From the IMG/VR virus record IMGVR_UViG_3300037458_001531, positions 1-36,389 of that record: DNA of 36,389 nucleotides; one strand, written 5' to 3'. The notes below the pieces were generated by a model. It was not told where the DNA came from. It did no database searches and worked only from the letters and a program-made list of their open reading frames with translations. This DNA comes from a virus (taxonomy: Duplodnaviria > Caudoviricetes). This document shows, in pieces, positions 93-26,713 of the stretch; the first letter of the stretch is position 1, and every line of letters begins with the position of its first letter. A program made the position numbers and the translations under genes.

Positions 93-3000
93 GGCTTGTA
101 TCCCTTCTCCTTGTTGTGCACGTTGACGCCCTCGGCTATCCGGGGCAGCATCTGCATGACCTCCATGCGCGTCTGCCGGCTGACATCGCCCGTTATATTC
201 AGATTGACGATAACCGGAGAGGCCCTGGAGCCGCCGGACTGCACCGGCCTCACGGCCTCGCCGCGCCTGGTCACCATGCCTCCGTCGGAGAATCCGCGTA
301 TGCTGCCCGCGTTAATGGCGGTAAGAAGGGGCAGGAACCGCTTGGTCTGGGCGGCGTTCACCACGAACTCCCCGTCGCTGAGCATGGCGGGTATGGAGTC
401 GGAGGTCGGGGTGCCCGGCCCGGACACGGGGCCGCCGGAGGCAAACACGCCCGCCACCGCCGTGGTGGCCTGCAGGGACAGTATGGCGCCGACTATCATC
501 GACGTGGAGCTGTATATGGCCGACGTTATCAGTCCGGTGGAAGCCGTCGTGGCCGCCAGCTGGGCCTGCGCGGTCGCCGTCTGCGCCGTCTGGCCGAAAA
601 CCATCGTGGAGAAGAATCCCGAGATGGCCGTCAAGATCGGCGCCAGTGCGCCGGTCTGGTCTACGGATCCCTCGGCCTCCCCCGGGGCCGCGCCCGTCCC
701 CATGGCCTCCCCGCCGGGGGCCCCTGCGCCGGAGAACAGGCCGAACACGCCCTTCACCAGACCGGCCCCCGCGGAGAATATCTCCTTCCCGGCGGCCTCG
801 ACGAGTCCCTTTCCGGCGGTCTCCTTTATGCCCTGGATGAATCCGTCTATGAACTGGTCTATTATCGCGTTGGTGACGCCGTCCATTACGGTGTTCAGGA
901 AATTCCGGAATATGCCGATGCTCTCGTCCTGCTTCCTCGCCCTGAACAGGTCCGCGAAGGACTGCTTTATGGAGCCCTCTATACCCTCCACGAACCGCCT
1001 CCCCGCCCCTAGGAAGTTCTTCCTGCCGCTGTCCAGGCTCTCCACCAGGTCGGACAGGCCGAACCGAAGCGCCTCCGCCTGGGTGGCGTACAGCCTGCGC
1101 GTCTCTTCTGGCAGAGTCTTGTCGAAACGTATCGCCCTGACCTTGGCGTCTATCTCGTCCGCGTACGAGGACAGAAGAGCGAGCTGGGCGTCCGTGCTGG
1201 CGTACAGGACCTCCGGGTCCAGGGAGACACCGACCTTCGCCAGCTTCAGCCTGGCCGCGTCGAACGCGTCGTAAACGCTCTCCACGCCGCTGGCCACAGC
1301 GCCCCTGAGGGCCTCCGTCCTGGCGGTGATGGACCGCTGTATGGTCGCGTCATCCACGCCTGCAGTCTCGGACGGCACCCCGGGCGCCGCCGGGGACGCG
1401 ATGTACCCGACGGCCGGGGCCGGGCCCCTGGAGACACCCCTGAAGGCGTCCTCCAGATGCTTCACGGCGTCGGTCAGATTCTCCATCGCCATTATCTGCT
1501 TCGCCTCCGGGCTCTCGTTCAGGGACTCCAGGCTGCGTCTGAAGTGGTCCTCGAACAAAGGTCCCAGTCTCTCCAGCACCTCTACCGGCGACATCGTGGC
1601 GTCCGCCAGGAGGGCGCGCATCTCCTTCACGCGGGCCAGGCCCAGCGGGTCCGACTCCAGCTCGTCGGTGACGTTCAGCAGGCCGGACTCGAAGACGTCG
1701 CCTATGGTCTTTATGGCTGCGGCCTGCTTCTGGAAGAAGGCTCGCTGCTTGGCGCTCAGGCCCACGTAGTCCTCGAACTCCAGCTGCAGGTCCTTTATGA
1801 CGGACGACACGCGCTCGAAGCCGGCCCTGGCCCCCTCGTATGTCATGCGCTCCAGGTCCGCGCGGTAGTTCGCGAGTATACCCTGGAGCCGGAACCCGGC
1901 GGAGATCCTGTCCAGCCGCTGGAACACGGACCGCATCTGGTCCTCGGTGAACACGTCGGAGGCCTTGATGTCCTTCATTACCAGATCGAAGTACTTAGCC
2001 GCGGCCGTCATGGCCCCGCGCAGCCTCGGCGATATCTCCAGAAGCGCCCTCTCGGGTATCTGCGTCTCGAACACGTTGCTGATGAGTCCGGCGATATCCT
2101 CAACGGAACTCATTACGAGTGTCTTGGCGCGCTCGAACTGGCGCTCTATCCGGGCCATATCCCGCACCGTGGCCGTGAGCCCCCTGTCGTCAGTCCGGCT
2201 CAGCGTGCGCTGCCTGGAGGCTCCCAGCTCGGACAGCTTACGAAGATCACTCTCCCCGATCCGGAGCATCGACCTGTACGAATCTCCGACGACCTCTCTG
2301 GCGTTGTTCAGCACCTTGGAGGGTGTATTGTTGAGCGTCTTTTCGTACTCCGCCCGCAGCTCCCTGAGGGCCTTCTTCTGGCGCTCGGCCAGAGCCCGCA
2401 GCTCGTCGAAGCTGAGGTTCTTCGAATTCTCCCTGGACATCAATTTGTTAACGGTGTACAGCTCCGTGGACAGTTTGCGCAGATCCTCCAGCGTGCCGTC
2501 TCCCAGCTTGACCATGTCCTCGAGCGTGAAGGAGAACCCGCCGGAGGAGAGATCCGACATCATGTCGGACAGGGTCCTCGCGGGCTCCAGTGCGTCCTGG
2601 ATGGACAGCCGGAGCTCCTCCATGCGCACGATCTGGGGCCCGGTGGCGTCGCCGAACTTCGTCTTGCTCGTCAGATCATTCAGCTCCATGATCTGGCCGT
2701 TCAGGGCGTCTATCTCGGCCTGAGTCTTGCGCAGCAGAATATTGGCCGGGACGGTGAATCCGAGCCGCGTGGCTATGTCTCTGACGCCCAGGGACACGCC
2801 CTCCCGGCCGGAGAAGGCCCCGGTGACCGCCCGGTCCAGCTCGCGGCTCTTGGCGGCTATGAGATCGTCCAGTTTTCCCTCGGTCACGGCCGACTGTAGG
2901 TCCAGACTGTTCCACACGTTCAGCTCGGGCACCTGGACCACCAGATTCTTCTCGCGGATCTTCCCAACGGCCTTGTCGACCGCCTCAAGCTGCAGCTCGT

Positions 3001-6000
3001 TTAGCGTCGCGATGTCCCTGGCGATCCGTTCGGTCTCGGCCGCCAGTCCCGCCCTGTTGACGGCCGCCACGGTGTTCTTGCCGAAATCGGCGCCTATCGC
3101 CGAGAAGGACAGCTCCAGATTGGACAGGCTGCTCCTGAGAATCCTCTTGGCGTCCTCGGCTATCTTCTCGATGTTTTCCCGGGATATGGCCAGCTTTATC
3201 AGTATCTCATTGCGCTCCTCCGCGCTCCGAACCTGTTTCAGCCGCTTCGACAGCCTCTCAACCTCCCTCGAGATCTCTCGGATGCGGTCCAGATCGGGGC
3301 TGCCCGACACGAACAGCTCCTTGGTATCCAGAGAGATCCCGCCCTGCTGCAGCCTGTTCTGTATCTCCGCGATGTCCTTGGCGAATGCCGACGCCTCTCG
3401 GGCCCTGCGGTCGAACTCCACGAGCCTGTTCAGGGCCGCCTCCGCTGCCGAACTGTACAGATCATAGGTCTGCAGCAGCTGCGGGTCCACCTTGGACGGG
3501 TCGTAGAAGCCCTTCCAGTTTACAGCCTGTTTGTTTATCTCGGTCTGAACGGCTTGATACCTCTGTAGTGCCCTGGTGACCTCCTCTATTATCTCCGGGT
3601 CTTCCGTCTTGACCACTCTGGCCTTCTTTATCAGCTCATCTATCCTGGACTCCTGGCTCGACAAGGGGCGGTACTCGGCAGAGTAGGATTTATTCAGGAA
3701 CGCCGCATTTATCCGATTAATCTCCTGCTGGTAGAAGCGGACCATATCCTTATTGCCGGAGTCCCGCGCCTTACTTTGCAGGTCACGCAAGACCTCTATA
3801 TCTCGTTTGTACAGCCTCTGTAGAGGTTTCTCCTCGAATTGCCCGGAAAGGAATCTTTGAACTAGACTGACCCGCTCCAATTTTCTGAACCCATTGGAGA
3901 TCTCCTGCGTTATCTCATTGAAGTCCTTTGCTCCGCGCTGTGCCAACTTTTCTACGAATTTATTGAATGCGCGGTTCTGATTGAGGATTTCCTGTCGGGT
4001 GGCCTCCGTGACCGCACCCTCGAAATAATCCTCTTTCTTGGCCTTTAAAATGGTTTCCTCGAGTTCCTTTCTCTTCTCCTCGAATTGCTTCTTCTCCTCG
4101 GCACCGATCTTACCGAGATTGACTCTGGATAGATCGTAACCCACCCCGAGACTGAGCTGCTCGTTGGCCTGATAAGCGGCCTCGGACATCCCGAGCGGGT
4201 TCTTTGGGGCCGTCTTCCACAAACCAGTTATCTTACCGACCCAGGCCCAGATGTCCTTCAGCGTCTCTATCGGATTATCCTTGCCGAACAGTAGCAATGC
4301 CACCAGGCCGATGCCCCCCAGTAAGAGAGCCTTGAAACTGAACACAAAGGATGCTATCGCCAATAATATTCTGCCCAGGGCCCCAAATATACCTTTAAAT
4401 ATAGCGCCCGGTAACGCCTGGGCCAGCATGGAGGCCACTACACCTGCCACGACGCTCCACACCTCGTCCGCACCGAAAACACTGGCCATGAAGCCGACCA
4501 CCAGACCGGTCAGCGGTCCTCTCGCGCTAACGAACGCCCGGGCCAGACTACCTAGCACACCCTTACCGGCCATGGCCAGCGCGAACCTGGCTGCGATGTC
4601 CTCCGCAAGCTGTTTGAACGCATTGCCCAGCAGTCTGAAGGTACTGGGTATTGTCTTCAGTAGCACGTCTTTCAGGGCCACCACCATCTCGCCGGATATA
4701 GACTGTACCAAGGCACCTACGATCACCCCGGCCACCGTGCTCCATATCGCATCTGCCCCCAGTGCGCTGGCCAGCAGTCCCGCCACCGCGCCGGCCAGAG
4801 TGCCGCGAAGTGCGGCTAGTGAGTACAAAAGACCGCCTAATATCCCCTTTCCGGCTAGTACCGCGGCCGCCTTTTCCGCTAGTGTGGACAGCAGAGCCGG
4901 GACGGCCTTACGCAGGAACGCAACAGCAGCCAGTAACCCGGCAATTAGGGTCCTACTGAAACCGAACAGGCGGCGTGTAGCCAAACTCCACGCCACCTCC
5001 ACCGCGGCGAACACGTACAAGGCATAGTCCAGAAAGTCTTGGAAAAGCCACTTCGTTTTGCGGAGCCACGTCTCTGTCGCGGTCTCCTGCGAACGCAGCG
5101 CCGATACCCTCTCGTTGAAACCCTCGAACAGAATGTCCCTATCGCCCAGAGAGCCTTGACCTCCCTTAGCCAGAGCGGCTGTCGACAATAGCGCCAGACC
5201 GCCCAGCAGGGCTCCACCCAACAGCCACTTCGCGTTCTTACCGAGTAACAGATTGCCAAGCAGACCGTGGGGACCCGCCCTTGCGGACATGGCCGTGACG
5301 CGAGAATTAATCTTGTCCAGGGCACTGGTGACGGAGGACACGAGGTTAGTGCCGACCCCTCTGTTGAACAGGAAACTCATGTCGGCCAACATCCTGCCAA
5401 ACCCGCTCCGGACATCCTTCGCAGCCTCTTTGAATCCTCTGAAGGTGTTTTTCCATAGCCCTCGCGCGCGTGATCCCACCATGTCTAATGTCTTAATCCA
5501 TTCGGGACCGAATATCAGTTGCATCAGCTTGCCGCCAAATGTTCCGCCCAGCGACGTCGCGGCCTCTATGGACTTTTTGATGAATACGTCTATCGCCGCC
5601 TGTCCGAACTTGATAGCACGGGTGGACACAGACTGACTCGGGTCTCCCCCGAACAGGGCGTCGAACAGGGGGGCGAGAGACGGTCCCGCAAGGAACTTCT
5701 TCGCCTGATCTGTTAATAGATTTTTCAGAGGTAGTGTGACATTCTCCGCGAACAGAGAAGTGATCTTGTCCAGCCCCCTATTGCCGGTAAGTAGCAGGAA
5801 CAATGACGCGGTGTCTAGCATCAACTTGGTAAACGGCGCCTTGGACAGTACCGAGTCGAAGGCACCCAGAGCCGAGGCGATGCTAGTAAGGCCGGCCACG
5901 ATCCTCACGGGTCCGGGTCCTCCGTACAGAAATTCCCCGATGGCGCCCCAGTTCTTCCCACGCGAACTCATGAACTTCTGCAGTGTCTCGAACAGGCCCT

Positions 6001-9000
6001 CGACGCCACCCTTGGCACCCTTAGTGACTTTAAAGAAGTCTTTGATTGTCTTCCCAAATAGGAAGGCCCCAAAAATTCCTAATGGTCCCGACAGTCCGGT
6101 GTACTTGTCTAGTACCTGGAATATGGACTGGAAGACCTTACCGACACTCAGTGGCAGATTCTCCAGCAACCCTCTGCCTAGACCGGAGAAGAATGCCCCC
6201 AATGCATTTATAATCTCCGGGAGTTCCGTGCCTATATTGGAGATCACCAGAGCCACGAATTTCCCAGCCTTCTTGGCGGCCACCTCCAGAAGGCTCTCGC
6301 CGAACAGGGCCAGTCCTAGTCGCTCCCCGATAACCGCCAGGTGCGGAAGCATGGCCCCTCCGAGGGCGGCGCTAAGTGACGCCCTTATCAACCCAGGTTC
6401 GAACAAGCTGTTAACGAGAACCAAACCGGCACCCTGCAAAGACACCTGCAGTAGTGATGGAAAGGTCTCGAACACCTTCTGTGCCACAGCCCTGATTTTC
6501 TGGAAGACGTCTACAACGGCCTTCACGACGGGCTGCGTCTGCACCAGCTCTCCCACGTCCACCCGACGCACATCCTTCAGACCTATAACATCAAGACTGA
6601 GTCTGCCGCTTTTGGCCTTCCTATAGATCTCCGCGAATACGTCGGACACACCGGTCTTGAATCTCATGAAATCGGGCGCGACACTGTTCCACAGGCTCTT
6701 GGAGTCGGATTTGACACTGTCGATAGTGTCGGTCCACCAGGAACCTCCGATCACGTCCTCGTAGATATCCTCGAAATACCCTATCACTCTCTCGGCAAAC
6801 CGCTCCACGTAGTCGGCCGCGGAGGCAAGTTTCTCCCTGGCCAGTTTCTCCATATCAGGGAAGAACTTGTGTAGAAAATACATTCCGGCGAATGCCGCAG
6901 GTATCAGGGTGCCGAACACCAAGACCGCCATTGACAGCTGTCCTAAAAGACCCAGAGCAGACTTCAGGCCAACTTGCAGTGGCAGCAGGGCCAGTGCGAA
7001 CAGCCTTCCCGTCTTCGGAAGGTCCCTCAAACCGGCCTTAAGTTGCCTGAACATCCCGCCCAGCAGTCCGGATGCGGCGAAAAGCGGTATAAACACCTTG
7101 GAGGCGTCTCTTACCACACTTCCGAAGTCCCTGAAGTATTCCTCCACGTCCTCTACACCGCTCTTGATCCCCTCCACAGTGTCCGTCCACCAGGAGTGCC
7201 CTATCACCTCGTCGTAGAGATCCCGGAAGTATCCGATGAAGTCCCGAGTGAATCTGCGGACAGAGCGAGAGATCCCGCTGAAATCGAAGTCGAGCAGGGA
7301 CGACTCTTTCAGCAGTCCCAGAGAGCGCAACACACGCTTGGTGCCCGCGTTTATCGTGTCGACGAACGTGTCGAAGAAGGTCCTGTTCGCCTTCATCGTG
7401 AAACCGAGTGTGAAGGCCAAATCCAGGAATTGACCTTTCATGTCCTTCAGCAGCCAGGCGGCCGCCGTGAGGATCTCGGCACTACCGAAAGCCTCCTCCA
7501 GGATCAGTTTGAGTCTGTTGAGCATGGTCTCTATGATCGCCAGTGTGGCGTTAACCAGCTGCAGCAGCAATCCCGGGAGTTTGAACACTACCTTATAGGT
7601 GGTCAAGATCAGCGCGGCCAGCGCGGGACCGAATATCTCGGTGAACAGACGGCCTATTTCATACAGCCGTACCCCGGTGTCCGTGAGACCCTGGAGTATA
7701 TTATTTATGGAACCGTAGATCGGCGACAGTAGACCGGTCTTGACGGCCACCAGTGTGTCAGGAATGAGACCGAAGTACCTCAACATCCTCCTCCAGACGA
7801 TCCCGATGTCCCTGTCTAACGTGGCTATATTGACGCGTATCGCCCTGGAATCCTCTGACAGACCCTGTGTGAATCTGGAGAACACGGCCAGGAAGGCGTC
7901 TAGGTACTTCCTGCTGAATATGCGCTCGAAAGTCTGTCTGTCGAAACCGCCGGAGGCTATCCAATTCGCCGGTAGGAGACGCCTGAACGCACGCACGGCC
8001 TTCTCGGTGGTGGACTCGATGGTCCACAGGTAGGACAGGCGAAAGTTCCTGATGATCGTCAAGGCGCCGCCGAGGGAATCATCCAGAAGCCGTATGTACT
8101 CCCTGGTCTCGCCCCTTAGGGTGTTCGTAACGAAGAAGCCTGGTACGGCCAGTTTCACTTTCTCTCCCAGGGTCCCCAGGAAATCTAGAACGGGACCGCC
8201 GACAGATTTTATCGAGGCTATACCACCCACTACCTTAGTCCTAATCGAGCCCCCGAGGTCCTCCGCGGACTCGGCCGCCAGTCTCATCTTGACGGTCAGA
8301 TCACCGACACCGGCCGATATACCCCTGGTGAGACCCAGTCCCTTGTCCAGGTTGTACACGTACGTCCTGAACGCGGAGGACAGCGCCCCCTCCAGCTGCT
8401 GCAGTGTCGGAGTGAACTTGGCAAACTCCGCCCCGAGTTTGTCCGCGTTGTTTATCAGCGATGTGAAGATGAAGTCGGACGTCAGTTTGCCCTGCTCGGC
8501 CACAGTCCGGAGCTGTCCCACACTGATATCCAGCTCCTCCGCCAGGAGCTGCGCGAACCTCGGCATCTGCTCCATCACGGACGCCAGCTCCTCCCCGCGG
8601 AGCGCGCCCGCCGAGAGCCCCTGCCCCAGCTGGATTATCGCCCTGGAGGCGGACTCCGCGCTGCCACCGGAAATGGCTATGCTTTGATTCAGGGCTTGTG
8701 TCGCCTGCATCAGACGGCGCTCGGATACCCCGGCTCTCGACAGCGCCGTGCTTAGCTTGTAGTAGACGTCTACCGTGTCCCCAACGGAGGTCCTTGTGTC
8801 TCGCGCTATTCCGGCCAGGCGCTTTTCCACGCGGCCCAGGTCCTCCAGGTCCTTCGTGATTAGCGACAGCCTGTTCTGGATGGAGGTGAACTCCTGATTC
8901 ACACTCTTCAGCACCGCGTACGTTCCGCCCGCAATGAACGCCGAACCTATCGTCTTGCCCAAAGCCGCCAGCGCCGCCGCGGCCTTATTTGTGGACGTCT

Positions 9001-9088
9001 CGATGTTTTTGACGGAATCGCTGACCTTATTGAGCTCGCGCGCAGAGTCGTGCGTTCTGGCGTTTACATCGATCAGGATACCGGACAT
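89..9088 (-). CDS. Tail tape measure protein (2999 aa)
   Basis: N-terminal tape-measure domain (IIQLGQGLSAGALRGEELASVMEQMP), Ala/Gly/Leu-rich helical body with hydrophobic segments, typical C-terminal FASGGPVSGPGTPTSDSIPAMLSDGEFVVNA motif; lies downstream of the tail chaperones; GGAG SD. Confidence 0.95.
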   Translation of the reverse strand: MSGILIDVNARTHDSARELNKVSDSVKNIETSTNKAAAALAALGKTIGSAFIAGGTYAVLKSVNQEFTSIQNRLSLITKDLEDLGRVEKRLAGIARDTRTSVGDTVDVYYKLSTALSRAGVSERRLMQATQALNQSIAISGGSAESASRAIIQLGQGLSAGALRGEELASVMEQMPRFAQLLAEELDISVGQLRTVAEQGKLTSDFIFTSLINNADKLGAEFAKFTPTLQQLEGALSSAFRTYVYNLDKGLGLTRGISAGVGDLTVKMRLAAESAEDLGGSIRTKVVGGIASIKSVGGPVLDFLGTLGEKVKLAVPGFFVTNTLRGETREYIRLLDDSLGGALTIIRNFRLSYLWTIESTTEKAVRAFRRLLPANWIASGGFDRQTFERIFSRKYLDAFLAVFSRFTQGLSEDSRAIRVNIATLDRDIGIVWRRMLRYFGLIPDTLVAVKTGLLSPIYGSINNILQGLTDTGVRLYEIGRLFTEIFGPALAALILTTYKVVFKLPGLLLQLVNATLAIIETMLNRLKLILEEAFGSAEILTAAAWLLKDMKGQFLDLAFTLGFTMKANRTFFDTFVDTINAGTKRVLRSLGLLKESSLLDFDFSGISRSVRRFTRDFIGYFRDLYDEVIGHSWWTDTVEGIKSGVEDVEEYFRDFGSVVRDASKVFIPLFAASGLLGGMFRQLKAGLRDLPKTGRLFALALLPLQVGLKSALGLLGQLSMAVLVFGTLIPAAFAGMYFLHKFFPDMEKLAREKLASAADYVERFAERVIGYFEDIYEDVIGGSWWTDTIDSVKSDSKSLWNSVAPDFMRFKTGVSDVFAEIYRKAKSGRLSLDVIGLKDVRRVDVGELVQTQPVVKAVVDVFQKIRAVAQKVFETFPSLLQVSLQGAGLVLVNSLFEPGLIRASLSAALGGAMLPHLAVIGERLGLALFGESLLEVAAKKAGKFVALVISNIGTELPEIINALGAFFSGLGRGLLENLPLSVGKVFQSIFQVLDKYTGLSGPLGIFGAFLFGKTIKDFFKVTKGAKGGVEGLFETLQKFMSSRGKNWGAIGEFLYGGPGPVRIVAGLTSIASALGAFDSVLSKAPFTKLMLDTASLFLLLTGNRGLDKITSLFAENVTLPLKNLLTDQAKKFLAGPSLAPLFDALFGGDPSQSVSTRAIKFGQAAIDVFIKKSIEAATSLGGTFGGKLMQLIFGPEWIKTLDMVGSRARGLWKNTFRGFKEAAKDVRSGFGRMLADMSFLFNRGVGTNLVSSVTSALDKINSRVTAMSARAGPHGLLGNLLLGKNAKWLLGGALLGGLALLSTAALAKGGQGSLGDRDILFEGFNERVSALRSQETATETWLRKTKWLFQDFLDYALYVFAAVEVAWSLATRRLFGFSRTLIAGLLAAVAFLRKAVPALLSTLAEKAAAVLAGKGILGGLLYSLAALRGTLAGAVAGLLASALGADAIWSTVAGVIVGALVQSISGEMVVALKDVLLKTIPSTFRLLGNAFKQLAEDIAARFALAMAGKGVLGSLARAFVSARGPLTGLVVGFMASVFGADEVWSVVAGVVASMLAQALPGAIFKGIFGALGRILLAIASFVFSFKALLLGGIGLVALLLFGKDNPIETLKDIWAWVGKITGLWKTAPKNPLGMSEAAYQANEQLSLGVGYDLSRVNLGKIGAEEKKQFEEKRKELEETILKAKKEDYFEGAVTEATRQEILNQNRAFNKFVEKLAQRGAKDFNEITQEISNGFRKLERVSLVQRFLSGQFEEKPLQRLYKRDIEVLRDLQSKARDSGNKDMVRFYQQEINRINAAFLNKSYSAEYRPLSSQESRIDELIKKARVVKTEDPEIIEEVTRALQRYQAVQTEINKQAVNWKGFYDPSKVDPQLLQTYDLYSSAAEAALNRLVEFDRRAREASAFAKDIAEIQNRLQQGGISLDTKELFVSGSPDLDRIREISREVERLSKRLKQVRSAEERNEILIKLAISRENIEKIAEDAKRILRSSLSNLELSFSAIGADFGKNTVAAVNRAGLAAETERIARDIATLNELQLEAVDKAVGKIREKNLVVQVPELNVWNSLDLQSAVTEGKLDDLIAAKSRELDRAVTGAFSGREGVSLGVRDIATRLGFTVPANILLRKTQAEIDALNGQIMELNDLTSKTKFGDATGPQIVRMEELRLSIQDALEPARTLSDMMSDLSSGGFSFTLEDMVKLGDGTLEDLRKLSTELYTVNKLMSRENSKNLSFDELRALAERQKKALRELRAEYEKTLNNTPSKVLNNAREVVGDSYRSMLRIGESDLRKLSELGASRQRTLSRTDDRGLTATVRDMARIERQFERAKTLVMSSVEDIAGLISNVFETQIPERALLEISPRLRGAMTAAAKYFDLVMKDIKASDVFTEDQMRSVFQRLDRISAGFRLQGILANYRADLERMTYEGARAGFERVSSVIKDLQLEFEDYVGLSAKQRAFFQKQAAAIKTIGDVFESGLLNVTDELESDPLGLARVKEMRALLADATMSPVEVLERLGPLFEDHFRRSLESLNESPEAKQIMAMENLTDAVKHLEDAFRGVSRGPAPAVGYIASPAAPGVPSETAGVDDATIQRSITARTEALRGAVASGVESVYDAFDAARLKLAKVGVSLDPEVLYASTDAQLALLSSYADEIDAKVRAIRFDKTLPEETRRLYATQAEALRFGLSDLVESLDSGRKNFLGAGRRFVEGIEGSIKQSFADLFRARKQDESIGIFRNFLNTVMDGVTNAIIDQFIDGFIQGIKETAGKGLVEAAGKEIFSAGAGLVKGVFGLFSGAGAPGGEAMGTGAAPGEAEGSVDQTGALAPILTAISGFFSTMVFGQTAQTATAQAQLAATTASTGLITSAIYSSTSMIVGAILSLQATTAVAGVFASGGPVSGPGTPTSDSIPAMLSDGEFVVNAAQTKRFLPLLTAINAGSIRGFSDGGMVTRRGEAVRPVQSGGSRASPVIVNLNITGDVSRQTRMEVMQMLPRIAEGVNVHNKEKGYKP

Positions 9089-12193: not shown

Positions 12194-13402
12194 TCAGCCG
12201 TGGAAGACCGGGAGGATTCCCAGAGACAGCGCCGAGTTGGACTTGCGCACCCAGGTGCCGGTCGCGTTCGCGATCGTGGTGACGTCCGTGATGGCCTTGG
12301 CCGTGCCGCTCTCCACCGCGTAGCCGTACTCGGCGTCCGAGGGGAACTTGTCGGCGCTGCCCGCCCAGTTGTACCCGGCCGGCGCGAGGATGTAGCCCCA
12401 GCGGTACCAGACCGTGGTCGTGCCGCCGCCCCTGTAGGCCCCGGCGTTGCGGTCGATCTCGACGGGCTCGGGCATCACCAGAGGCACCATCGCCAGCGCG
12501 CCGGGCAGCACGATGAACGAGGTCTTCGTGCCGACGATGTCCACGCCCGCCCCGGTGTTCACCTTGGTCAGGTCGGCCGTGGCCATGCCCTGCGCGGCGC
12601 GGGTCTGCAGCAACCGGAACTTGCCCTGGAAGATCGTCGGGAAGTCGAGGTTGCCGTCGCGGACGCGGTCGCTGTCGACCAGGTTGGCCGAGCGCAGCGA
12701 CGCGAGGACCTCGGGACTAGTGACCAGATACGCCCACTCGGGCTCGTGGTCCTTGTACGCCTTCCCGAAGGCCTCCAGGAATCCCTCGGCGCGCTGGGCT
12801 CCGACGTAGGCCGCGTTGGCCGTGGTGCCGTCCGCCTGGTACCCCACCTTGTTGATGAGGCGGGACGCGCCCATGTCCACGTAGAAGCCGTACTTCTTGT
12901 CCGTGGGATCGTTGGTGAAGGTCTGACCGCCCAGACCGGTTCCGCCGCCGGCCGACGCTGCGCCGTTCAGCGCCTCCGCCAGCGCGACACCCTTCAGCAC
13001 CGCCAGGATCGCGTTGTGCTCGTCCTGGGTGCGGTGCTCCACGAAGTCCCGGGAGATCTTCGCCAGCCCGTCCTTCTGCGTCACCAGCTGCTGCAGATTG
13101 ACCTTCGTGCCGCCATAGGTGCGGGCGGTCTTGACGTACGTCAGGTAGTCCGAGGCGTACGTTGAGGTCGTTCCCGCGGTGCTGTCCGTCAAGGACGCGA
13201 CGTTGATCGTCGGGTTCATCGGCTTGAACCAGCGGAGCTGACCGACGTAGGTCTCGGTGTCGCGGTTCACGTTCGGGTTGTCGCTGACGATGCCTGTGCC
13301 CGAGAGCTTCTTGGCATTCGTGTATGCTTCATCGGTGTAAGCGCCGATCGCCTCCTGGAGGACGAAATTCGTGGCGCCGCCGACGTCGGTGCGAGCGGTC
13401 AT
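12194..13402 (-). CDS. Major capsid protein, 402 aa
   Basis: Size, strongly biased codon usage, AAAGGAAA SD, position after scaffold; C-terminal VEIDRNA...GGG.TTVWYRWGYILAPAGYNW pattern. Confidence 0.88.
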   Translation of the reverse strand: MTARTDVGGATNFVLQEAIGAYTDEAYTNAKKLSGTGIVSDNPNVNRDTETYVGQLRWFKPMNPTINVASLTDSTAGTTSTYASDYLTYVKTARTYGGTKVNLQQLVTQKDGLAKISRDFVEHRTQDEHNAILAVLKGVALAEALNGAASAGGGTGLGGQTFTNDPTDKKYGFYVDMGASRLINKVGYQADGTTANAAYVGAQRAEGFLEAFGKAYKDHEPEWAYLVTSPEVLASLRSANLVDSDRVRDGNLDFPTIFQGKFRLLQTRAAQGMATADLTKVNTGAGVDIVGTKTSFIVLPGALAMVPLVMPEPVEIDRNAGAYRGGGTTTVWYRWGYILAPAGYNWAGSADKFPSDAEYGYAVESGTAKAITDVTTIANATGTWVRKSNSALSLGILPVFHG

Positions 13403-13425
13403 TCTGGTGTTTCCTTTAGGTTAGG

Positions 13426-14091
13426 TCATGTGGGCGCACGCCTTAGCTGCCCGGCGGCGGCGCGTCGTAGTACTTCGTCCTGCGGTAGAGCGAATAGCGA
13501 AGAGCTGGATCCGGACGTATCGGGCGGCAAAGAGTCCCCGGCCGAGCCCGTTCCGGTAGATGTTTTGGATTTGAACAGAAAGGAGTTGTTCTCGTCCTCG
13601 GCGAAAGTCTTGATGAAGTCAGGCACGCTGACGCCGGATTTGTGCACCCACTCGCCCTGCTCGTTCTTGACGAGTAATGCCGTTATCTCCTTGAAGGCCA
13701 TGTCGAACGACCTCGCGTTTCTGAAGGGCAGAGCCTGCATCGCGCCCTTCACGGTGATGTCCCGCGTAAGCTCGATGTTCCTCTGCTCCAGCTCCTGCCT
13801 TGCCGCGCGCTCGGCCGCCAGCTCCTGCTCGAAGGCCTCGCGATGCTTCCCCTCATCTTTCAGCCGCTGGACCTCGGCCGCGCGCAGATCCGCCTCGTAC
13901 TTGGCCAGCTTCTTGATGGCCTCGTCCCGGGCTGCGTACGCCTTGTCCAGATTCGCCTTTATCGGCGCCAGCTGCGCTTCCACGAGTTTCTGGAGGCGAT
14001 CCTGCGAAGGGTCGCCTCCGGTATTCTCGCTCGAGCTCTCAGCGGACGATTCCGCCGCCGATTCTTCCGGTTTGCTCTCTGTATCGCTCAT
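13426..14091 (-). CDS. Capsid scaffolding protein, 221 aa
   Basis: Start MSDTES at 14091 with AGAGGA SD; acidic disordered N-terminus, coiled coil, SFLFK.K...G.G C-terminal motif; directly before MCP. Confidence 0.85.
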   Translation of the reverse strand: MSDTESKPEESAAESSAESSSENTGGDPSQDRLQKLVEAQLAPIKANLDKAYAARDEAIKKLAKYEADLRAAEVQRLKDEGKHREAFEQELAAERAARQELEQRNIELTRDITVKGAMQALPFRNARSFDMAFKEITALLVKNEQGEWVHKSGVSVPDFIKTFAEDENNSFLFKSKTSTGTGSAGDSLPPDTSGSSSSLFALPQDEVLRRAAAGQLRRAPT

Positions 14092-14103
14092 CTGTATTCC
14101 TCT

Positions 14104-14179
14104 GAGTACAACTCGATGTGACCGACGGCACAGCCGCGGCCGGCTTGTTTCCAAGGCACAGTCTGTTTTTGTGCAGACT
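14104..14179. promoter_or_regulatory. Cluster of short hairpins in the RNAP-scaffold intergenic region
   Basis: GAGT-ACA-ACTC (14104-14114), CGGC-ACA-GCCG (14126-14136), AGGC-ACA-GTCT (14154-14164, G-T wobble), plus AGTCTG...CAGACT (14160-14179). Confidence 0.45.
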
Positions 14180-14208
14180 CTCGCCTGGGTTAATTCAACG
14201 GGGTGCGA

Positions 14209-17200
14209 TCAGTTGACTCCATACCACCCGAAATTCTCGAAGAAGTCGTCGGGAATTTCCCTGAGCACATCTTCCCTCGTCAAAATGTCCGAATCTTTCA
14301 TCAGTTTCCCCCCGATTCTGGACTTGCCGGGGACCGGTATCAGGCCCAGTTCTATGGCCTCTTCCAGATACGCGTCGTATTTGGCCTTCGGCAGCCCCCT
14401 CGCCCTCATCTCGTCCAGAGTCAGCCTTATGACGTTTCTATCCATAGCCCTGGCATATATTTCCCGCAGGGCCGCCCGGGCCTTGATCATGTCGGCCGCG
14501 TTGGTGAAGAAAGCGTCGTGCACCGTGGACGTCTGCACGCCGCTGCCCCGGCCCCACAGATGGAACCGTTTGACCAGCACCGCGTCGTTGGAGTGATTGC
14601 CGTTCACCGCGAACGCCGTGCGGGCCTTGGTTGTGTCGGCGATGTCGTTGATCTTGCCCGACTTGTTGATGGCCTGCTCCCACCAAGTGGCCTCCGTCTT
14701 CTGCGGCACCTGTAGGATGTTCTTTATCCAGTTGCCGGCCTCGTCGCGGTAATTCAGCCGCTCCTCGAAGGACTGCGTGAAATGCTGCTCCAGCACTTTC
14801 CCGTCGAAATTGACCCAGGGCACGTTAGTCCAGCTCTTCGGGAGCTTGTTGGCATACAGGACCGGCACGCCGTCGAATCCGACCTCGCGGCCCAGCGCCC
14901 TCTTCTCGAAGTCGGGTATCGGTACGGGAAAGTCGAATTTGAGATAGGTGGCCCCGGTGCGCCTGGTCTCCGGAAGCTCCACGCCGTAAACTATGTCCCT
15001 CAGAGTGCCCTGCGGGTTCCAGAAGGCGAGCCGCTTGAGCAGCTTCTCGCTTACCGGCTCACCCGCCTTCAGGCCCAGCATCTCGCTGAGCCTGTCGGGC
15101 AGAACGTACCCCTTCTTCCTGGTGCCGAGCACGGCTATCTTTCCGATGGACTCCCAGTCGAATGCGGCCTGCGACGGCTTGGCCTCGTTCAGGAACTCCT
15201 CGGCCAGTCTTCCAAGGAACCGCGTGAAATTCTTCAGCACAGGGACCTGCTCCTGCAGGTGCTCGCTCATTATGGCCGCTATCTGCTTGAAGTCGTCCGG
15301 CGTCACGACGCGATCGTACGCGGAGGACATTTTGTCGACCAGGTCGCGCGTCTTGGAGTCCAGAAACCAGAGCTCCTCCATGATGTCCTCGCCGGGGCTC
15401 ACGCCCCTGTCGAAGATGTCCTTGACATTCTTACGCAGCTGGGAGAGCTCCTCGTACAGCTCTGGGTCCAGCTTCTCGTACCTGGCCATCCTGGCCGATA
15501 TCTCCGCCAGCACCGTGTCCCTGTCCGACGTCTTCACGACGAGAGTTCCCGTGTCCTTCTCCAGGACCTTCGACAGCTTCCCCTCGACGTTCAGGGTGCC
15601 GGTGCGCTCCCCTGCGCCGTACAGAGTGACCATGTTCTGCGCCTTGGCGGCCTTCCGCAGGTCTTTCTCCGTCAGGCCCAGCCGCTCGTTCATGCGTCTG
15701 AACCTCGGATCGTTGTACGTGGCCGCCGCGATCTCGTCGTACAGGCGCTTCTTATAGGACGTGGGCACCACGTTGCTCAGCTCCGCCAGCTGCTTGTTCC
15801 GCGTGGTGAGGGCTATTATCTGCGCGCCGGAGGACGAGGCATCCTGCTCCAGGGCCAGCGCGGTCCTATAGCCGGACAGCGTCTCAAGGGCGCCCTTGGT
15901 GTAGTCCCCCCTGAGAAAGTTGTCCAGTTTGGCCGTCTCCATGGCCAGACGGAAGAACTTACCCAGCTCCTCCCCATCCACTCGGGCCACCAGATCGGAG
16001 TCCAGCACGGCGCGTATGTCGTTGGGCTTTCCCCTGAGCATGTGATTTCCCAGGCGGACCAGCTCCGGCCTCCATCTCTCGGCGATCTTCTGCCTCCCCG
16101 TGAAGGTCAGCGAGTCGTGCCTCCCCTCGAAGTAATCGCTCAGCCCGCCGAGAAAAGAGCCCACCTGGTCCTGGAAGTTTCGGAAGTCCCTCGGGCTGAA
16201 CGCCTTCGCCTCCGCCGTGTTCAGGAACGGTCTGAACGTCTCGCCCGCCTGCGGGCCGACCAGCCCGCGCTCGTAGATGCGCGCCCTGTGGTCCAGGAAC
16301 GGCATGCTGGAGAACTTCTTGTCGCCGTCCACGAGCCATTCCATCGCCTTGAAGCGCTCGTAAGAGTCCCCGCGGGAGGCGATGTACTTCCGGTACGTGT
16401 TCAGGTCCTCGTACCTCTGCGCCGCGCCCCTGTCGTCCCGGAAGTATAGGAGCTTTCTCACGAAATCGTAGTAATCGCGGTCCACGCGGAACTCCGCCCT
16501 CGCGGCCCAGTTCAGGGCGTCCGCCATCTCCCGGTCGACGGCGGACTCGGGAAACTCCGAGAAGCTGGAGGAGGACACGATCGGGATACGGGTGTCCTCC
16601 AGGCCCAGAACACCTCTGTCCATGAAGTATGTCTTGTATCCGGGGCGCACTATGAGCCTGTTCTTCGGGTCCACGATGTTCACGCGCAGGCCCAGCTCCA
16701 CCCGCCTGGACAGCGCCGCGTATTCCAGCAGCCGCTTGTCCCTGAGCTCCACGTAGTACGACAGCGTGTCGTAGTACGGACCGAAGTACTTGCCGCTCAT
16801 TCTGCTCTTCATCCTGCGCTTCTGCACGCCGAAGGTCCCGAGCGAGAACAGCTTGTCCATCTTCTTGGCCTCCATCAGACGGAGACCCAGATTGAACCAC
16901 TGATTCCTTGACCCGTTCAGATTGGCCATGTTGTACAGGTCCCGGCCCAGTGAGACGGCCAGCGAGTCCCTGTCGGGCGAATCCGCCAGGCTGAGACGAT
17001 GGGCGAACCGCAGGTAGAACTGCTGCAGGTCCCTCTCGGACAGTCTCGCCCTTATCTTCAGGGGAATCTTGTAGTCGAAGATGTCGCGCATCTCGCGGGC
17101 GATCTTCGGGGCCGTGCTGTCCTCCCAGAGATTCTTCGCCAGGATATTCCCGAGAAATCCGTCGTGCAGCTCCTGCAGGGAGGTCGCGCCGAGCACCGGA

Positions 17201-18870
17201 TCTACGTACGCGTCCAGCTGCAGCTTGCGCAGCACGTCCGAGTCCTTGCGTATCTGCGTCTCGATATAGTCCGACACGTTGGTCACGTCGAACTTCATCT
17301 GCGCGTTGGAGGCGGCCTTGAAGCTGACCCAGGGCTCCGGGTTCCGCCGGTACCTGGAGAACAGTATGCGCAGATTCTCCGCCACCACCGCTCTCTCGTT
17401 GACGCCCATGCGGTCCTCCAGGGCGGCCACGGTCTTCCCGATGAACTCCGCGTCCCGCGGGAGCAGGTCGGCGCTGTCCCCGACGCGCCTCATGGCGGAC
17501 TCCAGAACCTCCGGTTTCGGCTGGTACACCCGCACGTCGTCGTACCTGCGCGTGAACGGGTTGAACACCGTCTGATCCTCTCGCGGAGGCGACGCCAGCA
17601 CCCGGTTCTTGGTGGCCCTCTTTACGTTGAGCAGCAGTCCCCTGTAGTTGGTCAGGGACAGATTACCGTCCAGGTCGCCTGACTGCAGCAGGTAGTAGTC
17701 CACGAGGGTGCGGGCCAGCCTGTCGTCCGAGATGAAGTCGTCCGGGGAGGAGGCGCCCAGCTGCATCGCGTCTAGACGCGCCTTGGCGGCGGCGAATCTG
17801 CGCGTGTCTCCGGGCACCAGGTATCCGGAGTCGGTCAACGCCCTGAGCTCCTTTATGCCCAGAGAGTTGCCCTCGTCATTGGTGAATTTGGACAGGTGCA
17901 GCTGCCCGCTCCTGAACAGGGATACCTTCTCGTACTCCCCGAGGTGCCTCAGCTGAACCTCGCGCGTCTGTCTGGATAGCCAGTCGTGGTAGCTTTCCCG
18001 CATCGGTGTCTGGCCGTCGTAGTAGGCCATCTGCTGCCGCGTCAGGCCCCTAACGTTGTTCCGGCGCACCTGCGCCACGCCCTCCAGAGACGCTATGTCC
18101 GCCCAAGACTTGAACACCGGGACGGTGGTGGACCGGCAGTTGTAGTGAGCCGGCGGCAGGTGCTCCGTGTCCTCCGGGGGATACACGGTGCCGTCCCTGT
18201 GAGCGCACAGCGGGGTGGTCCTGGAGTCCAGTATGGCCACGTATTGCCACCCCCGTATGGCCCTGGCGTTGGCGGCGTACACGGCGTGATCCGCCTGGGC
18301 CCTGACGCTCGTGACGGCCGTGACCACCAGGGCCCTGGAATGCATGCGTGTTATCTTGTGCACGTTGCCGCGCCTGACCTCTCTGGCCATCTCCTCCATG
18401 CTCAGGCCCTCGGCCATCCCGCGGCGTATCAGCGCCTCTATCCTCTGACGCTCCGAGATGCTGACGCCCGCCCACCCGGCGGCCAGCGTCCTGTCCGAGT
18501 ACAGCGGCCTCTGCAGGACTATCTCCTCGGACACGCGGCGCTCCGGGCGAGCCGTCCGCCAGATGCGGCCGACCGCGGCCTCCACGGTCTGGTACGCGTA
18601 GGAAAGCTGGTCGGAGGCCAGGTCCAGCAACGAGCGCCTGGTGACCGAGTACACCTCTCGGTACGTGCCCCTCAGCTCCCGGTCCACGGCCTCTCTGAGC
18701 CGCTCCAGCCCGCGCTGGGAGCGTTCCGCCTCCCGCACGAGGCGCTCCAGGCGCACAGCGTGGCCGTCCACAAGCAATTCCACCTTCCCGGCGACCCGCC
18801 TCTCGTACAGGCGGACCATCGCCGCGCGGTCCACGGCTCTGTCGAACACCGCCGTGTTGGCGTTGGTCAT
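14209..18870 (-). CDS. MuF/SPP1-gp7 minor head protein fused to a T7-like single-subunit DNA-directed RNA polymerase (1553 aa)
   Basis: N-terminal MuF motifs WQYVAILDSRTTPLC..RDG and PPAHYNCRS; C-terminal RNAP motifs DHRARIY (T7 DWRGRVY), EQDASSSGAQ (motif A), RKAAKAQNMVTLYG (motif B), AFAVNGNHSNDA (T7 IAPNFVHSQDG), TVHDAF (motif C), in the T7 order. Confidence 0.92.
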   Translation of the reverse strand: MTNANTAVFDRAVDRAAMVRLYERRVAGKVELLVDGHAVRLERLVREAERSQRGLERLREAVDRELRGTYREVYSVTRRSLLDLASDQLSYAYQTVEAAVGRIWRTARPERRVSEEIVLQRPLYSDRTLAAGWAGVSISERQRIEALIRRGMAEGLSMEEMAREVRRGNVHKITRMHSRALVVTAVTSVRAQADHAVYAANARAIRGWQYVAILDSRTTPLCAHRDGTVYPPEDTEHLPPAHYNCRSTTVPVFKSWADIASLEGVAQVRRNNVRGLTRQQMAYYDGQTPMRESYHDWLSRQTREVQLRHLGEYEKVSLFRSGQLHLSKFTNDEGNSLGIKELRALTDSGYLVPGDTRRFAAAKARLDAMQLGASSPDDFISDDRLARTLVDYYLLQSGDLDGNLSLTNYRGLLLNVKRATKNRVLASPPREDQTVFNPFTRRYDDVRVYQPKPEVLESAMRRVGDSADLLPRDAEFIGKTVAALEDRMGVNERAVVAENLRILFSRYRRNPEPWVSFKAASNAQMKFDVTNVSDYIETQIRKDSDVLRKLQLDAYVDPVLGATSLQELHDGFLGNILAKNLWEDSTAPKIAREMRDIFDYKIPLKIRARLSERDLQQFYLRFAHRLSLADSPDRDSLAVSLGRDLYNMANLNGSRNQWFNLGLRLMEAKKMDKLFSLGTFGVQKRRMKSRMSGKYFGPYYDTLSYYVELRDKRLLEYAALSRRVELGLRVNIVDPKNRLIVRPGYKTYFMDRGVLGLEDTRIPIVSSSSFSEFPESAVDREMADALNWAARAEFRVDRDYYDFVRKLLYFRDDRGAAQRYEDLNTYRKYIASRGDSYERFKAMEWLVDGDKKFSSMPFLDHRARIYERGLVGPQAGETFRPFLNTAEAKAFSPRDFRNFQDQVGSFLGGLSDYFEGRHDSLTFTGRQKIAERWRPELVRLGNHMLRGKPNDIRAVLDSDLVARVDGEELGKFFRLAMETAKLDNFLRGDYTKGALETLSGYRTALALEQDASSSGAQIIALTTRNKQLAELSNVVPTSYKKRLYDEIAAATYNDPRFRRMNERLGLTEKDLRKAAKAQNMVTLYGAGERTGTLNVEGKLSKVLEKDTGTLVVKTSDRDTVLAEISARMARYEKLDPELYEELSQLRKNVKDIFDRGVSPGEDIMEELWFLDSKTRDLVDKMSSAYDRVVTPDDFKQIAAIMSEHLQEQVPVLKNFTRFLGRLAEEFLNEAKPSQAAFDWESIGKIAVLGTRKKGYVLPDRLSEMLGLKAGEPVSEKLLKRLAFWNPQGTLRDIVYGVELPETRRTGATYLKFDFPVPIPDFEKRALGREVGFDGVPVLYANKLPKSWTNVPWVNFDGKVLEQHFTQSFEERLNYRDEAGNWIKNILQVPQKTEATWWEQAINKSGKINDIADTTKARTAFAVNGNHSNDAVLVKRFHLWGRGSGVQTSTVHDAFFTNAADMIKARAALREIYARAMDRNVIRLTLDEMRARGLPKAKYDAYLEEAIELGLIPVPGKSRIGGKLMKDSDILTREDVLREIPDDFFENFGWYGVN

Positions 18871-20408
18871 CTAGCAGGCGGCTTCGTCTCGGCAGACAAT
18901 TCTGCCGCGTAGTCCATCTCCCGCGCCCTCTTCTCCAGCAGAATGTCCATGTCCGCCTGGATCTCCTGCATGCCCTGCTTGTCGTCGTACTCCGAGGGCA
19001 GCATGTCGTTCTGCTTGAGCAGCTGCAGCCAGACAGAGCGCGGGATCTTGCCCGAGTCGTACCACTCGGTGGCCAGCCTCAGCCAGTCGGCGCCCAGTGG
19101 CGTCTGGTTGAAGTCCTCGGAGAGCGTGCATGACACCTCGGCGGCCGGAAACTCGGTGCCGTACCGCCAGGTCAGCATGAGGGAGATTACCTGCGACATA
19201 ACGGCGCCCACGCGCTCGTTCAGGGACCCCAGCTGGGCCGTCTGCGCCGCGTTGCGCAGGTGCAGGGCCACCCCGGACTGGTCCGTCTCCGGCGTGAGCA
19301 TACGGACGCCCAGCTTCGCTATCTCCTCTATCGAGGATGCGATCGCCCTGTCCATGTCCTGCAGCGCGGCGGTGGGGGTCTCCAGCACGCTGGCCTTCCC
19401 GTCCGGCGGCAGCTTCAGCCACGTGCCCAGCCCGCTCTCCACTATCTCGTCGAATTTCTCGTCAGTGATGTCGGCGCAGATGACCGGGGTATAGGTGGCC
19501 GCCCCGTACAGCAGGTGATTCCTGCGGCTCATCTTGTTGTACAGGGCCACCTCCTTGTTGATAATCGGCATGAGGGCGGGCTCCCTGGTGGCGATGCTGC
19601 CGTTCAGCGGCCAGGCCGGGATGTACGGCAGCGGCGCGCCCTCCATCAGCGGGACAACCGTCTCCTGCAGCACGAAGCCGGATTCTCCGGAGGCATTCTC
19701 CTCGGCCTGCGACTCGGGCTTCCTGTAGACCCTGACGCGGTACGCGCCCCCCGACACGTCGTGGACGCGGACGGTGTCCACGAACCGCGGGTGGAACTCG
19801 TCCGACGCTCGGTCCTCCACCAGCTCTCTCGTGACCACCATCCCGAGAACCAGCCTGCCGGTCATGTCCTTGTTGATCCGCCAGTTTATCACTTTCTCGG
19901 CTTTCCACACCACCGGATACGGCCTGTACTGCCTGCGCTCGTCCCGCGACAGATCCTCGTCCTCCACCTGGGGATAATCCACGTAGACCCAGGCCCTACT
20001 GGTCTGGATTTCCTCCCAGAGGGCCTCGTCCATGAACGCCGACAGGGTGCAGCCGTCCTGGCCGAATTCCTTGAGTATCCACTCGGAGGCGTCTTCCGGA
20101 ACTGACTCCGGCAGCGCGACCACCGGCGGCTTCCTGAGCAGCCCGCCCACCACCATCTTGGCGAACTCCGCCGTTATGCCCGGCAGCTCCGCCTCCGACC
20201 TGTACCAGTTGTACTGCGACTGGCTCATGGTCGGGGAGAACGGGGTCAGCAGATTGCTGAACGTGAACGAATCCAGGATCGCGTCCAGGCTCTTCACCGT
20301 CTGCTCCCCGGCGCACAGCGCTCTGGACCTCTTCCACAGCGGCACCCTGCGCTGGTACTCCACGCACGGCGTCGCGACGGTCTTCACAGCTCCGGGGGCG
20401 ACCGTCAT
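18867..20408 (-). CDS. Portal protein (DUF4055-like), 513 aa
   Basis: EY....PLW...RA...G...VK, W.YVDYP, YPVVWKAEKVINW, LPYIPAW motifs; position before MuF. Confidence 0.88.
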   Translation of the reverse strand: MTVAPGAVKTVATPCVEYQRRVPLWKRSRALCAGEQTVKSLDAILDSFTFSNLLTPFSPTMSQSQYNWYRSEAELPGITAEFAKMVVGGLLRKPPVVALPESVPEDASEWILKEFGQDGCTLSAFMDEALWEEIQTSRAWVYVDYPQVEDEDLSRDERRQYRPYPVVWKAEKVINWRINKDMTGRLVLGMVVTRELVEDRASDEFHPRFVDTVRVHDVSGGAYRVRVYRKPESQAEENASGESGFVLQETVVPLMEGAPLPYIPAWPLNGSIATREPALMPIINKEVALYNKMSRRNHLLYGAATYTPVICADITDEKFDEIVESGLGTWLKLPPDGKASVLETPTAALQDMDRAIASSIEEIAKLGVRMLTPETDQSGVALHLRNAAQTAQLGSLNERVGAVMSQVISLMLTWRYGTEFPAAEVSCTLSEDFNQTPLGADWLRLATEWYDSGKIPRSVWLQLLKQNDMLPSEYDDKQGMQEIQADMDILLEKRAREMDYAAELSAETKPPAR

Positions 20409-20409
20409 C

Positions 20410-20586: not shown

Positions 20587-20598
20587 CTCAGCTCCTTG

Positions 20599-23339: not shown

Positions 23340-23346
23340 CTCGGCA

Positions 23347-25436: not shown

Positions 25437-25451
25437 ATTCGGCCCCCGATG

Positions 25452-26063: not shown

Positions 26064-26073
26064 GCGCACCCCG

Positions 26074-26691: not shown

Positions 26692-26713
26692 TTCTAGCTC
26701 CCGGTTGTTGTAG

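Follow-up and report, generated by a model that had tools for sequence, protein, structure and literature searches.

The 36,389-nucleotide stretch of viral DNA analysed here (IMG/VR record IMGVR_UViG_3300037458_001531; hereafter the window, at its full length) raises the question of what an RNA polymerase (RNAP) is doing on a minor head protein, as a single gene at positions 14209–18870 on the minus strand encodes a MuF/SPP1 gp7-type head protein that runs on into a T7-type single-subunit RNAP. MuF head proteins are common, with a role that is mostly obscure, and few phage groups are known to have a virion polymerase. The architecture is real and conserved, and it is apparently unpublished. 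In our assessment the fusion is probably a packaged and injected early polymerase that would start a two-polymerase relay resembling those of phages N4 and P23-45 in its working while belonging to neither.

Architecture of the fusion protein

The gene and the parts of its product are as follows:

14209..18870, (-): MuF-RNAP fusion gene, 1553 aa, 177.6 kDa, pI 9.3
17827..18870, (-): MuF/SPP1-gp7-type module, aa 1–348 (Pfam core aa 142–249; phrog_241 over aa 1–345, E 4.9e-64)
17806..17826, (-): linker, aa 349–355, predicted flexible (pLDDT < 50; sequence variable between homologs)
16531..17805, (-): N-terminal polymerase part, aa 356–780 (aa ~566–780 align to the T7 N-terminal domain)
14212..16530, (-): T7-type polymerase core, aa 781–1553 (motifs A, B, C, DxRxR, specificity loop)

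The original prediction, made from the sequence without database searches, had placed a MuF/SPP1 gp7 signature in the first ~340 aa and a polymerase in the last ~770 aa, and the families Phage_Mu_F and RNA_pol were both found above their cut-offs in this one protein. Phage_Mu_F (PF04233) matched aa 142–249 (E 2e-14; 54.7 bits against a cut-off of 29.6), TIGR01641 (SPP1 gp7) matched with 66.9 bits against a cut-off of 39.65 (E 1.8e-18), and together with phrog_241 these matches bear out the signature, the motifs of which are located at 18205–18249 (WQYVAILDSRTTPLC), 18190–18198 (RDG) and 18130–18156 (PPAHYNCRS). Residue conservation was counted in the 120 listed of 499 homologs, and C222, H242 and C245 are conserved as C/H/C in 111/111 of those that cover the region. 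The structure model predicts the module with confidence up to the low-confidence linker, and its Foldseek matches are predicted minor capsid and head morphogenesis proteins. Given the PF04233 match and a gene position directly after the portal gene, the N-terminus can be assigned to the MuF1/SPP1 gp7 family.

The single-subunit RNAP motifs follow one another in order within the last ~770 aa, and every motif that had been named lies where it had been placed within the open reading frame (ORF) 14209–18870(-): DHRARIY at 16273–16293, GLVGPQ at 16249–16266, EQDASSSGAQ at 15820–15849, RKAAKAQNMVTLYG at 15616–15657, WVNFDG at 14800–14817, AVNGNHSNDA at 14581–14610 and VHDAF at 14509–14523. The extent of the polymerase, however, had been drawn too short. 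An AlphaFold model of aa 360–1553 (pLDDT 82, pTM 0.79) was matched to T7 RNAP by Foldseek (E 7e-18) and was aligned by VIA-align to T7 residues 33–883 from aa ~566 (Z 23.4, 651 residues, rmsd 6.7); as this structural alignment starts at aa ~566 (T7 residue 33), a T7-type N-terminal domain, within which the model predicts a beta-hairpin at aa ~675–709, precedes the core. The corresponding VIA Z values were 22.5 for yeast mitochondrial RNAP, 21.6 for human mitochondrial RNAP and 17.8 for N4 mini-vRNAP. Pfam RNA_pol matched the chain with E 6.5e-11, and the family profile searched against the PDB retrieved T7 RNAP (E 2e-19), mitochondrial RNAP (E 4e-16) and also N4 RNAPII. T7 RNAP (Autographiviridae) and mitochondrial RNAP are the best matches in sequence and fold, and the fused enzyme has the T7 motif spacing and a specificity-loop hairpin (aa ~1352–1390) alignable to that of T7; unlike T7 RNAP, it has extra insertions in the fingers and an extra region of ~210 aa (aa 356–565) with no T7 counterpart. 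Foldseek gave no PDB match at E ≤ 0.001 for a model of aa 1–700, and an ESM Atlas search with aa 350–600 gave no usable match. Modelled fold and motifs place the fused enzyme in the T7-like single-subunit RNAP superfamily.

The core contains D860/R862/R864, motif A D1010, motif B R1072/K1076/Y1084/G1085, H1426 and motif C H1451/D1452, of which the residues from D1010 onwards are equivalent to D537, R627, K631, Y639, G640, H784, H811 and D812 in the fetched T7 record; the catalytic roles of the T7 motif A, B and C residues are established. Both catalytic Asp residues and the motif B Arg, Lys and Tyr are therefore present as predicted, with D1010, K1076, Y1084, G1085, H1426, H1451 and D1452 kept in 120/120 listed homologs and R1072 in 119/120. 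It is very unlikely that the polymerase domain has lost catalysis and persists as a relic with a DNA-binding or structural role. While Pfam scores the domain weakly, DHRAR stands in place of DxRGR and equivalents of H811 and DxRxR are missing from four distant members, the complete retention of catalytic residues among the listed homologs argues against a relic, as does the conservation of the motif A–B region, which is the best conserved of all (0.83–0.89 versus ~0.63 elsewhere). Furthermore, dN/dS relative to the closest locus (L009) is ~0.18 in MuF, ~0.15 in the middle and only ~0.09 in the core, and sequence comparison thus indicates that the polymerase half is under purifying selection. 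In an alignment of 22 other members, none has lost the Asp of motif C, and 21 retain that of motif A.

Integrity and spread of the fusion

The following genes surround the fusion:

18867..20408, (-): portal protein gene (phrog_145, E 3e-65), its stop overlapping the fusion start
13426..14154, (-): scaffold protein gene (phrog_206, E 2e-6)
12194..13402, (-): major capsid protein gene (phrog_247, E 4e-18)
30724..32274, (-): terminase large subunit gene (phrog_2, E 3e-30)
89..9088, (-): tape-measure protein gene, 2999 aa (PF20155, E 9e-50)

The frame of the fusion gene is uninterrupted, with its sole stop at its end, and its ATG shares an ATGA overlap with the portal stop; the ORF check and the PHROGs neighbours thereby agree with the predicted 1553-aa ORF between portal and scaffold. 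Terminase and portal lie upstream, while scaffold, capsid and then tape measure lie downstream, the tape-measure gene pointing to a long-tailed phage, and the fusion is the only MuF gene in the window. GC3 stays at 0.85–0.91 across all ten full 150-codon blocks of the fusion and is flat at the junction, and positions 13000–20500 form a single, joint-free contig in 3/3 DNA runs. A misassembly or chance fusion is barely conceivable: these runs may be the window's own source, but 499 homologs were found, the fusion is covered in full by 49 of 79 loci and two cultured phages have it, so that misassembly, which had been named as a possible refutation, is excluded by independent genomes. One RNA run gave short, low-depth contigs on the fusion gene; DNA carry-over being possible, these were not counted as expression.

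Four phage records, representing three phages, cover most of the query, namely EBPR siphovirus 1 (59%) and DSS3_VP1 and DSS3_PM1 (32%); their homologs are annotated as head or minor head proteins, that of DSS3_VP1 only as 'minor head protein'. A profile scan suggests ~870 IMG/VR stretches with relatives, at least 605 of which were confirmed, whereas the prokaryote genome contigs of GTDB yielded two matches, which fits lytic phages. When representatives of at least 1200 aa were retrieved with the polymerase part alone, 24/24 were found to have the MuF motif, and among loci retrieved by way of the capsid gene the polymerase lies upstream in 20/23, the other three having no room for it. The search for this architecture thus revealed the fusion in hundreds of contigs and two cultured phages, and it is retained down to ~21% identity; the fusion is old as well as widespread. 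The single distant proteins P0133 and P0234, used as queries for related loci, found nothing.

Two shorter MuF-polymerase fusions (P0234 and P0258; 1264–1307 aa) have a more T7-like core (Pfam E 1e-25) and fall outside the main fused clade in the polymerase tree, possibly representing an early branch or a second origin of the fusion. A fast-evolving subclade (P0201, P0228, P0233 and P0260) has an altered motif C (YDGF, FDAW) and no DxRxR, and may have changed in function. Additionally, the gene is interrupted inside motif B in 10/79 loci (some of them near-copies) and likewise in EBPR siphovirus 1, and Rfam identified group I introns at the breaks in 3/5 loci scanned. Group I introns split the polymerase at three places, namely within motif B, around aa 1043 and at aa 1425; one, in EBPR siphovirus 1, carries an HNH gene, and the GenBank record of this phage shows two separate genes because introns split the polymerase. 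The group I intron sites splitting the polymerase are:

L059:915..1140 and L059:2768..2976
L062:10923..11157
L066:10809..11034
L001 (gp47/gp48/gp49)

An insert of 60–230 aa was observed at one loop just before motif A (after aa ~989, nt ~15900) in 11/120 listed homologs (P0026, P0045, P0051, P0076, P0082, P0089, P0091, P0098, P0101, P0106 and P0107). By eye, three are ParB-like (DGxHRL), five or six ADP-ribosyltransferase-like, one GNAT-like and one unassignable, tentative labels based on pattern resemblance with weak tool support. Pfam matched none of the inserts over cut-off in these 11 homologs (FR47/GNAT at E 0.022 in P0106), and in the Atlas the P0045 insert gave a 0.76 lead to a cluster named ADP-ribosyltransferase, a value within the range of shuffled proteins. 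Inteins as a source of the ~140-aa inserts were rejected by eye and for want of an intein family match.

Second polymerase and promoter-like motifs in relatives

The window represents ~36 kb of a 76–80 kb genome, and no second polymerase, for which a check had been proposed, was found among its ORFs, the genome half concerned lying outside it. In relatives, a stand-alone T7-like second RNAP is present in 14/14 near-complete genomes and in DSS3_VP1, as well as in 8/13 mostly partial records of the DSS3-like subclade; there is none in the partial EBPR record. A polymerase tree of 35 rows groups the second enzymes with T7 gp1 (96/92) and places 19 fused enzymes on a long branch of their own (100/99), with the window's subclade separate from that of DSS3. 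A recent duplication as the origin of the second RNAP was rejected on the basis of a 13-bit cross-match and the tree. The order in relatives is tail genes, small genes, second RNAP, replication genes, terminase, head and tail, and coding is almost wholly on one strand in the five relatives checked. In G002–G013 a conserved hairpin with a long U-run precedes the second RNAP, with one or two very small hydrophobic ORFs behind it; this element may attenuate expression of the second polymerase.

Two repeated motifs, M1 and M2, were identified in 14 genomes, and M1 has the following sites in the window:

14186..14203, (-): M1 promoter-like motif, directly after the fusion stop and ahead of scaffold/capsid (exact core 14189–14201)
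32639..32656, (-): second M1-like site, with 1 mismatch to the motif, ahead of the terminase region

M1 (CCCGTTRRATTAACCC) was counted at 60 sense and 3 antisense sites, compared with 1 and 2 for the reversed control, and it occurs right after the fusion stop in 13/14 genomes, in 53/66 loci and in this window; further copies follow the second RNAP and the tail genes. Two matches in the window alone are not above chance, as 18/100 shuffles reach two. The site at 14186..14203 is a candidate promoter of the second (non-virion) polymerase. In the genome with the most divergent second RNAP (G013, 47%), M1 is missing even at 3 mismatches while M2 is kept, and a simple 12-mer search revealed no replacement late motif; DSS3_VP1 has a different repeated motif in M1-type places. 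A terminator-like GC-rich hairpin followed by 12 T was observed at ~33000–33050(-), with ~350 nt separating it from the second M1 site downstream.

M2 (GCG.AAA-N5-GTATCTTATATGA) has 35 sense sites and 1 antisense site (reversed control 0); 27/35 of the sites are located no more than 8 kb ahead of the second RNAP, a placement seen in 14/14 genomes. The window, which lacks this early region, contains no M2. When M2 alone was used for searching, 10/10 long contigs examined, out of 14 contigs found, carried the fusion. A hairpin of variable sequence begins at most 2 nt from the G of TATAT|G in 26/33 M2 sites and is on average 2.7 kcal/mol below shuffles, an excess which falls to 1.0 one base later and to about zero from 3–5 bases later. 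The DSS3-like subclade has a variant in the same register (GAGAAAA-N5-GYATCTATAATGA; 9/14 records, control 0) with a hairpin at the same G in 9/15 distinct sites, and the form of M2 thus changes with the subclade of the fused enzyme. We infer a transcript start at the M2 G with a protective 5' stem-loop, as in T7-like systems.

It is improbable that the fusion is packaged and active while recognition of the early motif falls to host sigma70, perhaps aided by a phage activator, in which case the fused enzyme would prime, make short RNAs, or hold or pull the genome end. Such a division of labour would accommodate a loose reading of M2 as TTGCGG-N16-TATGAT, the perfect TATAAT of the DSS3-type variant and the terminator-like element that precedes the second RNAP, and 80alpha gp44 binds DNA ends according to PMC7290940. 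However, the -10-like hexamer is out of register between the two subclades whereas G.G.AAA, GYATCT and TGA are in register, the spacer bases are nearly invariant over genomes of 35–63% GC, and in only 3/14 genomes does the interval from the last M2 to the second RNAP contain sigma70-like sites of at least 10/12. Moreover, the hairpin begins at the G in both subclades. Sigma70 starts several bases after its -10 box, and the G directly after TATAAT in the DSS3-type variant therefore does not fit a sigma70 start.

Proposed relay and its relation to known systems

A host-independent early polymerase would operate as follows. The fusion protein would be made late and loaded into the head at the portal via MuF, in one or two copies, and would be ejected with the DNA, by analogy with SPP1 gp7, which binds the portal and is present in 1–2 copies per capsid (PMC5576092), and with 80alpha gp44, an ejected minor capsid protein that binds DNA ends (PMC7290940). 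The fused enzyme would then read the early motif M2 (GCG.AAA-N5-GTATCTTATAT|GA), or GAGAAAA-N5-GYATCTATAAT|GA in the DSS3-like subclade, starting at the G in both cases and yielding mRNAs with a 5' stem-loop. Transcription would reach the second polymerase gene by read-through of the terminator-like element, and the second polymerase would read M1 for the replication, packaging and capsid genes (middle/late). As the window does not cover the half of the genome concerned, the presence of M2 and of a second polymerase in this particular phage is extrapolated from its relatives. A polymerase made late would have a clear use in the next cell, and the early motif offers it a target that varies with the subclade of the fused enzyme.

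That the polymerase is never delivered appears quite unlikely; it would then serve as a late polymerase or packaging helper in the infected cell, tethered to proheads by MuF or cut off before head closure. The gene does sit in a late operon, the linker is flexible and variable at aa 349–355, and the protein is large. On the other hand, the fused enzyme remains 60% identical in G013, in which M1 is lost and the second RNAP has diverged, the scanned ORFs of the window gave no prohead protease, and no stand-alone full-length member was found among the 24 long representatives.

Several observations weigh against delivery of an active early polymerase. Packaging, ejection and activity of the fusion are predicted from sequence and analogy, no virion proteomics for DSS3 phages was found in the part of the literature searched, and passage through a long tail requires the unfolding of a 178-kDa protein, ~4x the MuF module alone. 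The DSS3-like subclade has a replacement for the R627 equivalent, as do all except two of the 22 other aligned members, in addition to the residues missing from the four distant members mentioned above. By eye, a hairpin with a U-run lies 170–290 nt before the second RNAP gene in 11/14 genomes, so that a transcript from M2 to the second RNAP needs read-through, while G010 has a good sigma70-like site near the second RNAP gene instead of this element. The loose sigma70-type reading of M2 and the TATAAT of its variant belong here too, as do the 8/35 M2 sites that lie elsewhere, the M1 site that also precedes most early M2 sites, and G026, which has both polymerases and no motif at 1 mismatch. 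The M1 loss in G013 is a single case (n=1). Finally, M2, the fusion and the second RNAP are co-inherited in one clade, and their co-occurrence is therefore silent on the pairing of enzyme and motif.

The proposal that MuF serves as a packaging tag for host-independent early transcription has consequently gained indirect support from the fold, the catalytic residues, selection, the maintenance of the fusion down to low identity, the occurrence of a second RNAP in every near-complete relative and an early motif that tracks the subclade; virion presence, ejection and activity are predictions of the proposal. Transcription-driven DNA entry, also raised in the original prediction, is speculation; it requires fixed genome ends, and the one-strand gene order, which fits, is the sole point in its favour. 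It is possible, although we would not expect it, that the system constitutes a third independent virion-polymerase design, in which a MuF pilot holds the T7-type enzyme on the leading genome end, M2 transcription after ejection reels in the one-strand 70–80 kb genome, and the enzyme also carries swappable ParB-, GNAT- or ADP-ribosyltransferase-like domains before motif A.

If the early-polymerase reading is correct, the first phage genes are switched on without the host enzyme, a compact single-chain T7-type virion polymerase is added in a large aquatic lineage (the ~870 IMG/VR stretches), and a long tail can be traversed by a 137-kDa enzyme carried on MuF, making protein delivery by MuF directly testable. 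DSS3_VP1 on Ruegeria pomeroyi provides a cultured, harmless test system with candidate promoters in hand, two early-motif copies lying near 35,800 and 36,245, and the two enzyme-promoter pairs are candidate orthogonal tools for in vitro transcription.

T7 RNAP itself is unpackaged and made by host RNAP. The N4 system (vRNAP gp50 and RNAPII; Schitoviridae) is closer in outline, with a T7-superfamily fold, a late-encoded polymerase for which a virion role is proposed here, and a second phage polymerase in the genome; the second RNAP and early motif M2 of the relatives could belong to such a relay. In N4 the promoter hairpin is conserved, whereas the M2 hairpin follows a conserved box and varies in sequence. 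The fusion shows no sequence likeness to mini-vRNAP (2.6 bits, E 1, versus 44.8 bits for T7), it is 1553 aa long and ends with the polymerase while N4 gp50 has ~3500 aa, its second RNAP is a single chain close to T7, and its phage is long-tailed. In addition, an N-terminal MuF stands in place of the N-terminal injection and C-terminal encapsidation regions described for gp50 in PMC5512222. By sequence and layout, the fusion does not belong to the N4-type virion RNAPs. In P23-45, according to PMC10770324, the tape-measure-fused vRNAP gp96 transcribes the gene of the non-virion RNAP gp64 from a motif of its own, and two motifs occur. That phage is likewise long-tailed, with a polymerase joined to a structural protein, a second polymerase and two promoter motifs; its enzymes, however, are two-barrel and arose by duplication (PMC10770324), while here a T7-type enzyme is carried on MuF and is distant from the second RNAP on the tree.

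With SPP1 gp7, 80alpha gp44 and MuF toxins the fusion shares an N-terminal PF04233/TIGR01641 region and a gene right after the portal, and with MuF polymorphic toxins an enzymatic C-terminal extension (PMC5576092, PMC5512222 and PMC9503650). Unlike in the toxins, the cargo is a 1200-aa polymerase, and while MuF toxins are reported from temperate phages in these texts, here only two prokaryote-genome contigs were found and the cultured relatives are lytic; a polymerase C-terminus and so few genome contigs place the fusion outside the MuF polymorphic toxins. In the passages on MuF fusions in PMC5512222, PMC9503650, PMC5576092 and PMC7302621 the partners are toxins, ART, Nudix, 2H, PBECR, RelA/SpoT, portal and protease domains, with no polymerase among them. 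The available parts of PMC12697855 and bioRxiv 10.1101/2025.10.29.685362 do not address it, and no description was found in the literature searched, although one may exist in supplements or in subscription journals.

The phage is related to the Naomviridae (Noahvirus), whose DSS3_VP1 gp28 and DSS3_PM1 gp60 are full-length homologs (32%) and whose terminase (55–61%), portal (43%) and capsid (44%) are identical to those of the window to the extent given; their replication core is common to 14/14 relatives (the relatives, not the window). In the available parts of PMC8323127, the supplement lists gp28 as 'minor head protein-like' and the main text does not contain 'RNA polymerase'. The promoter motifs are variants, and a homolog of the dCTP deaminase (for dU-DNA) occurs in only 1/14 close relatives (the corresponding region falls outside the window), so that a link of the fusion to dU-DNA is not supported; ThyX is missing from 15/15 records, which is uninformative on dU. 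Head, tail and replication core genes make the phage a relative of the Naomviridae, whereas actual membership is less certain, as the dU enzyme is rare among close kin.

Further features of the window and relatives were observed. Between terminase and portal lie ~10 kb of probable tail-fibre or decoration genes (20410–30485(-)), including two phrog_8123 paralogs, a CBM_5_12-like gene and a 746-aa Ala/Ser/Gly-rich ORF; in DSS3_VP1, host-specificity and lysis genes occupy the same slot. The region between terminase and portal also holds a gene for a RebB-like ('killing trait', R-body) protein at 27813–28130(-) (PF11747, E 1e-7, over cut-off), which is adjoined by a small gene of similar make-up at 27515–27754(-). 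The tape-measure protein (89–9088(-)), of 2999 aa compared with 1655–3960 aa in relatives (by position and size), has a middle part that lacks a family match and could hide enzyme domains. Tandem repeats occur at contig ends (G013:1–300 and 76800–77325; G007:1–250; periods of ~132 and 69 bp), possibly near a genome end or origin.

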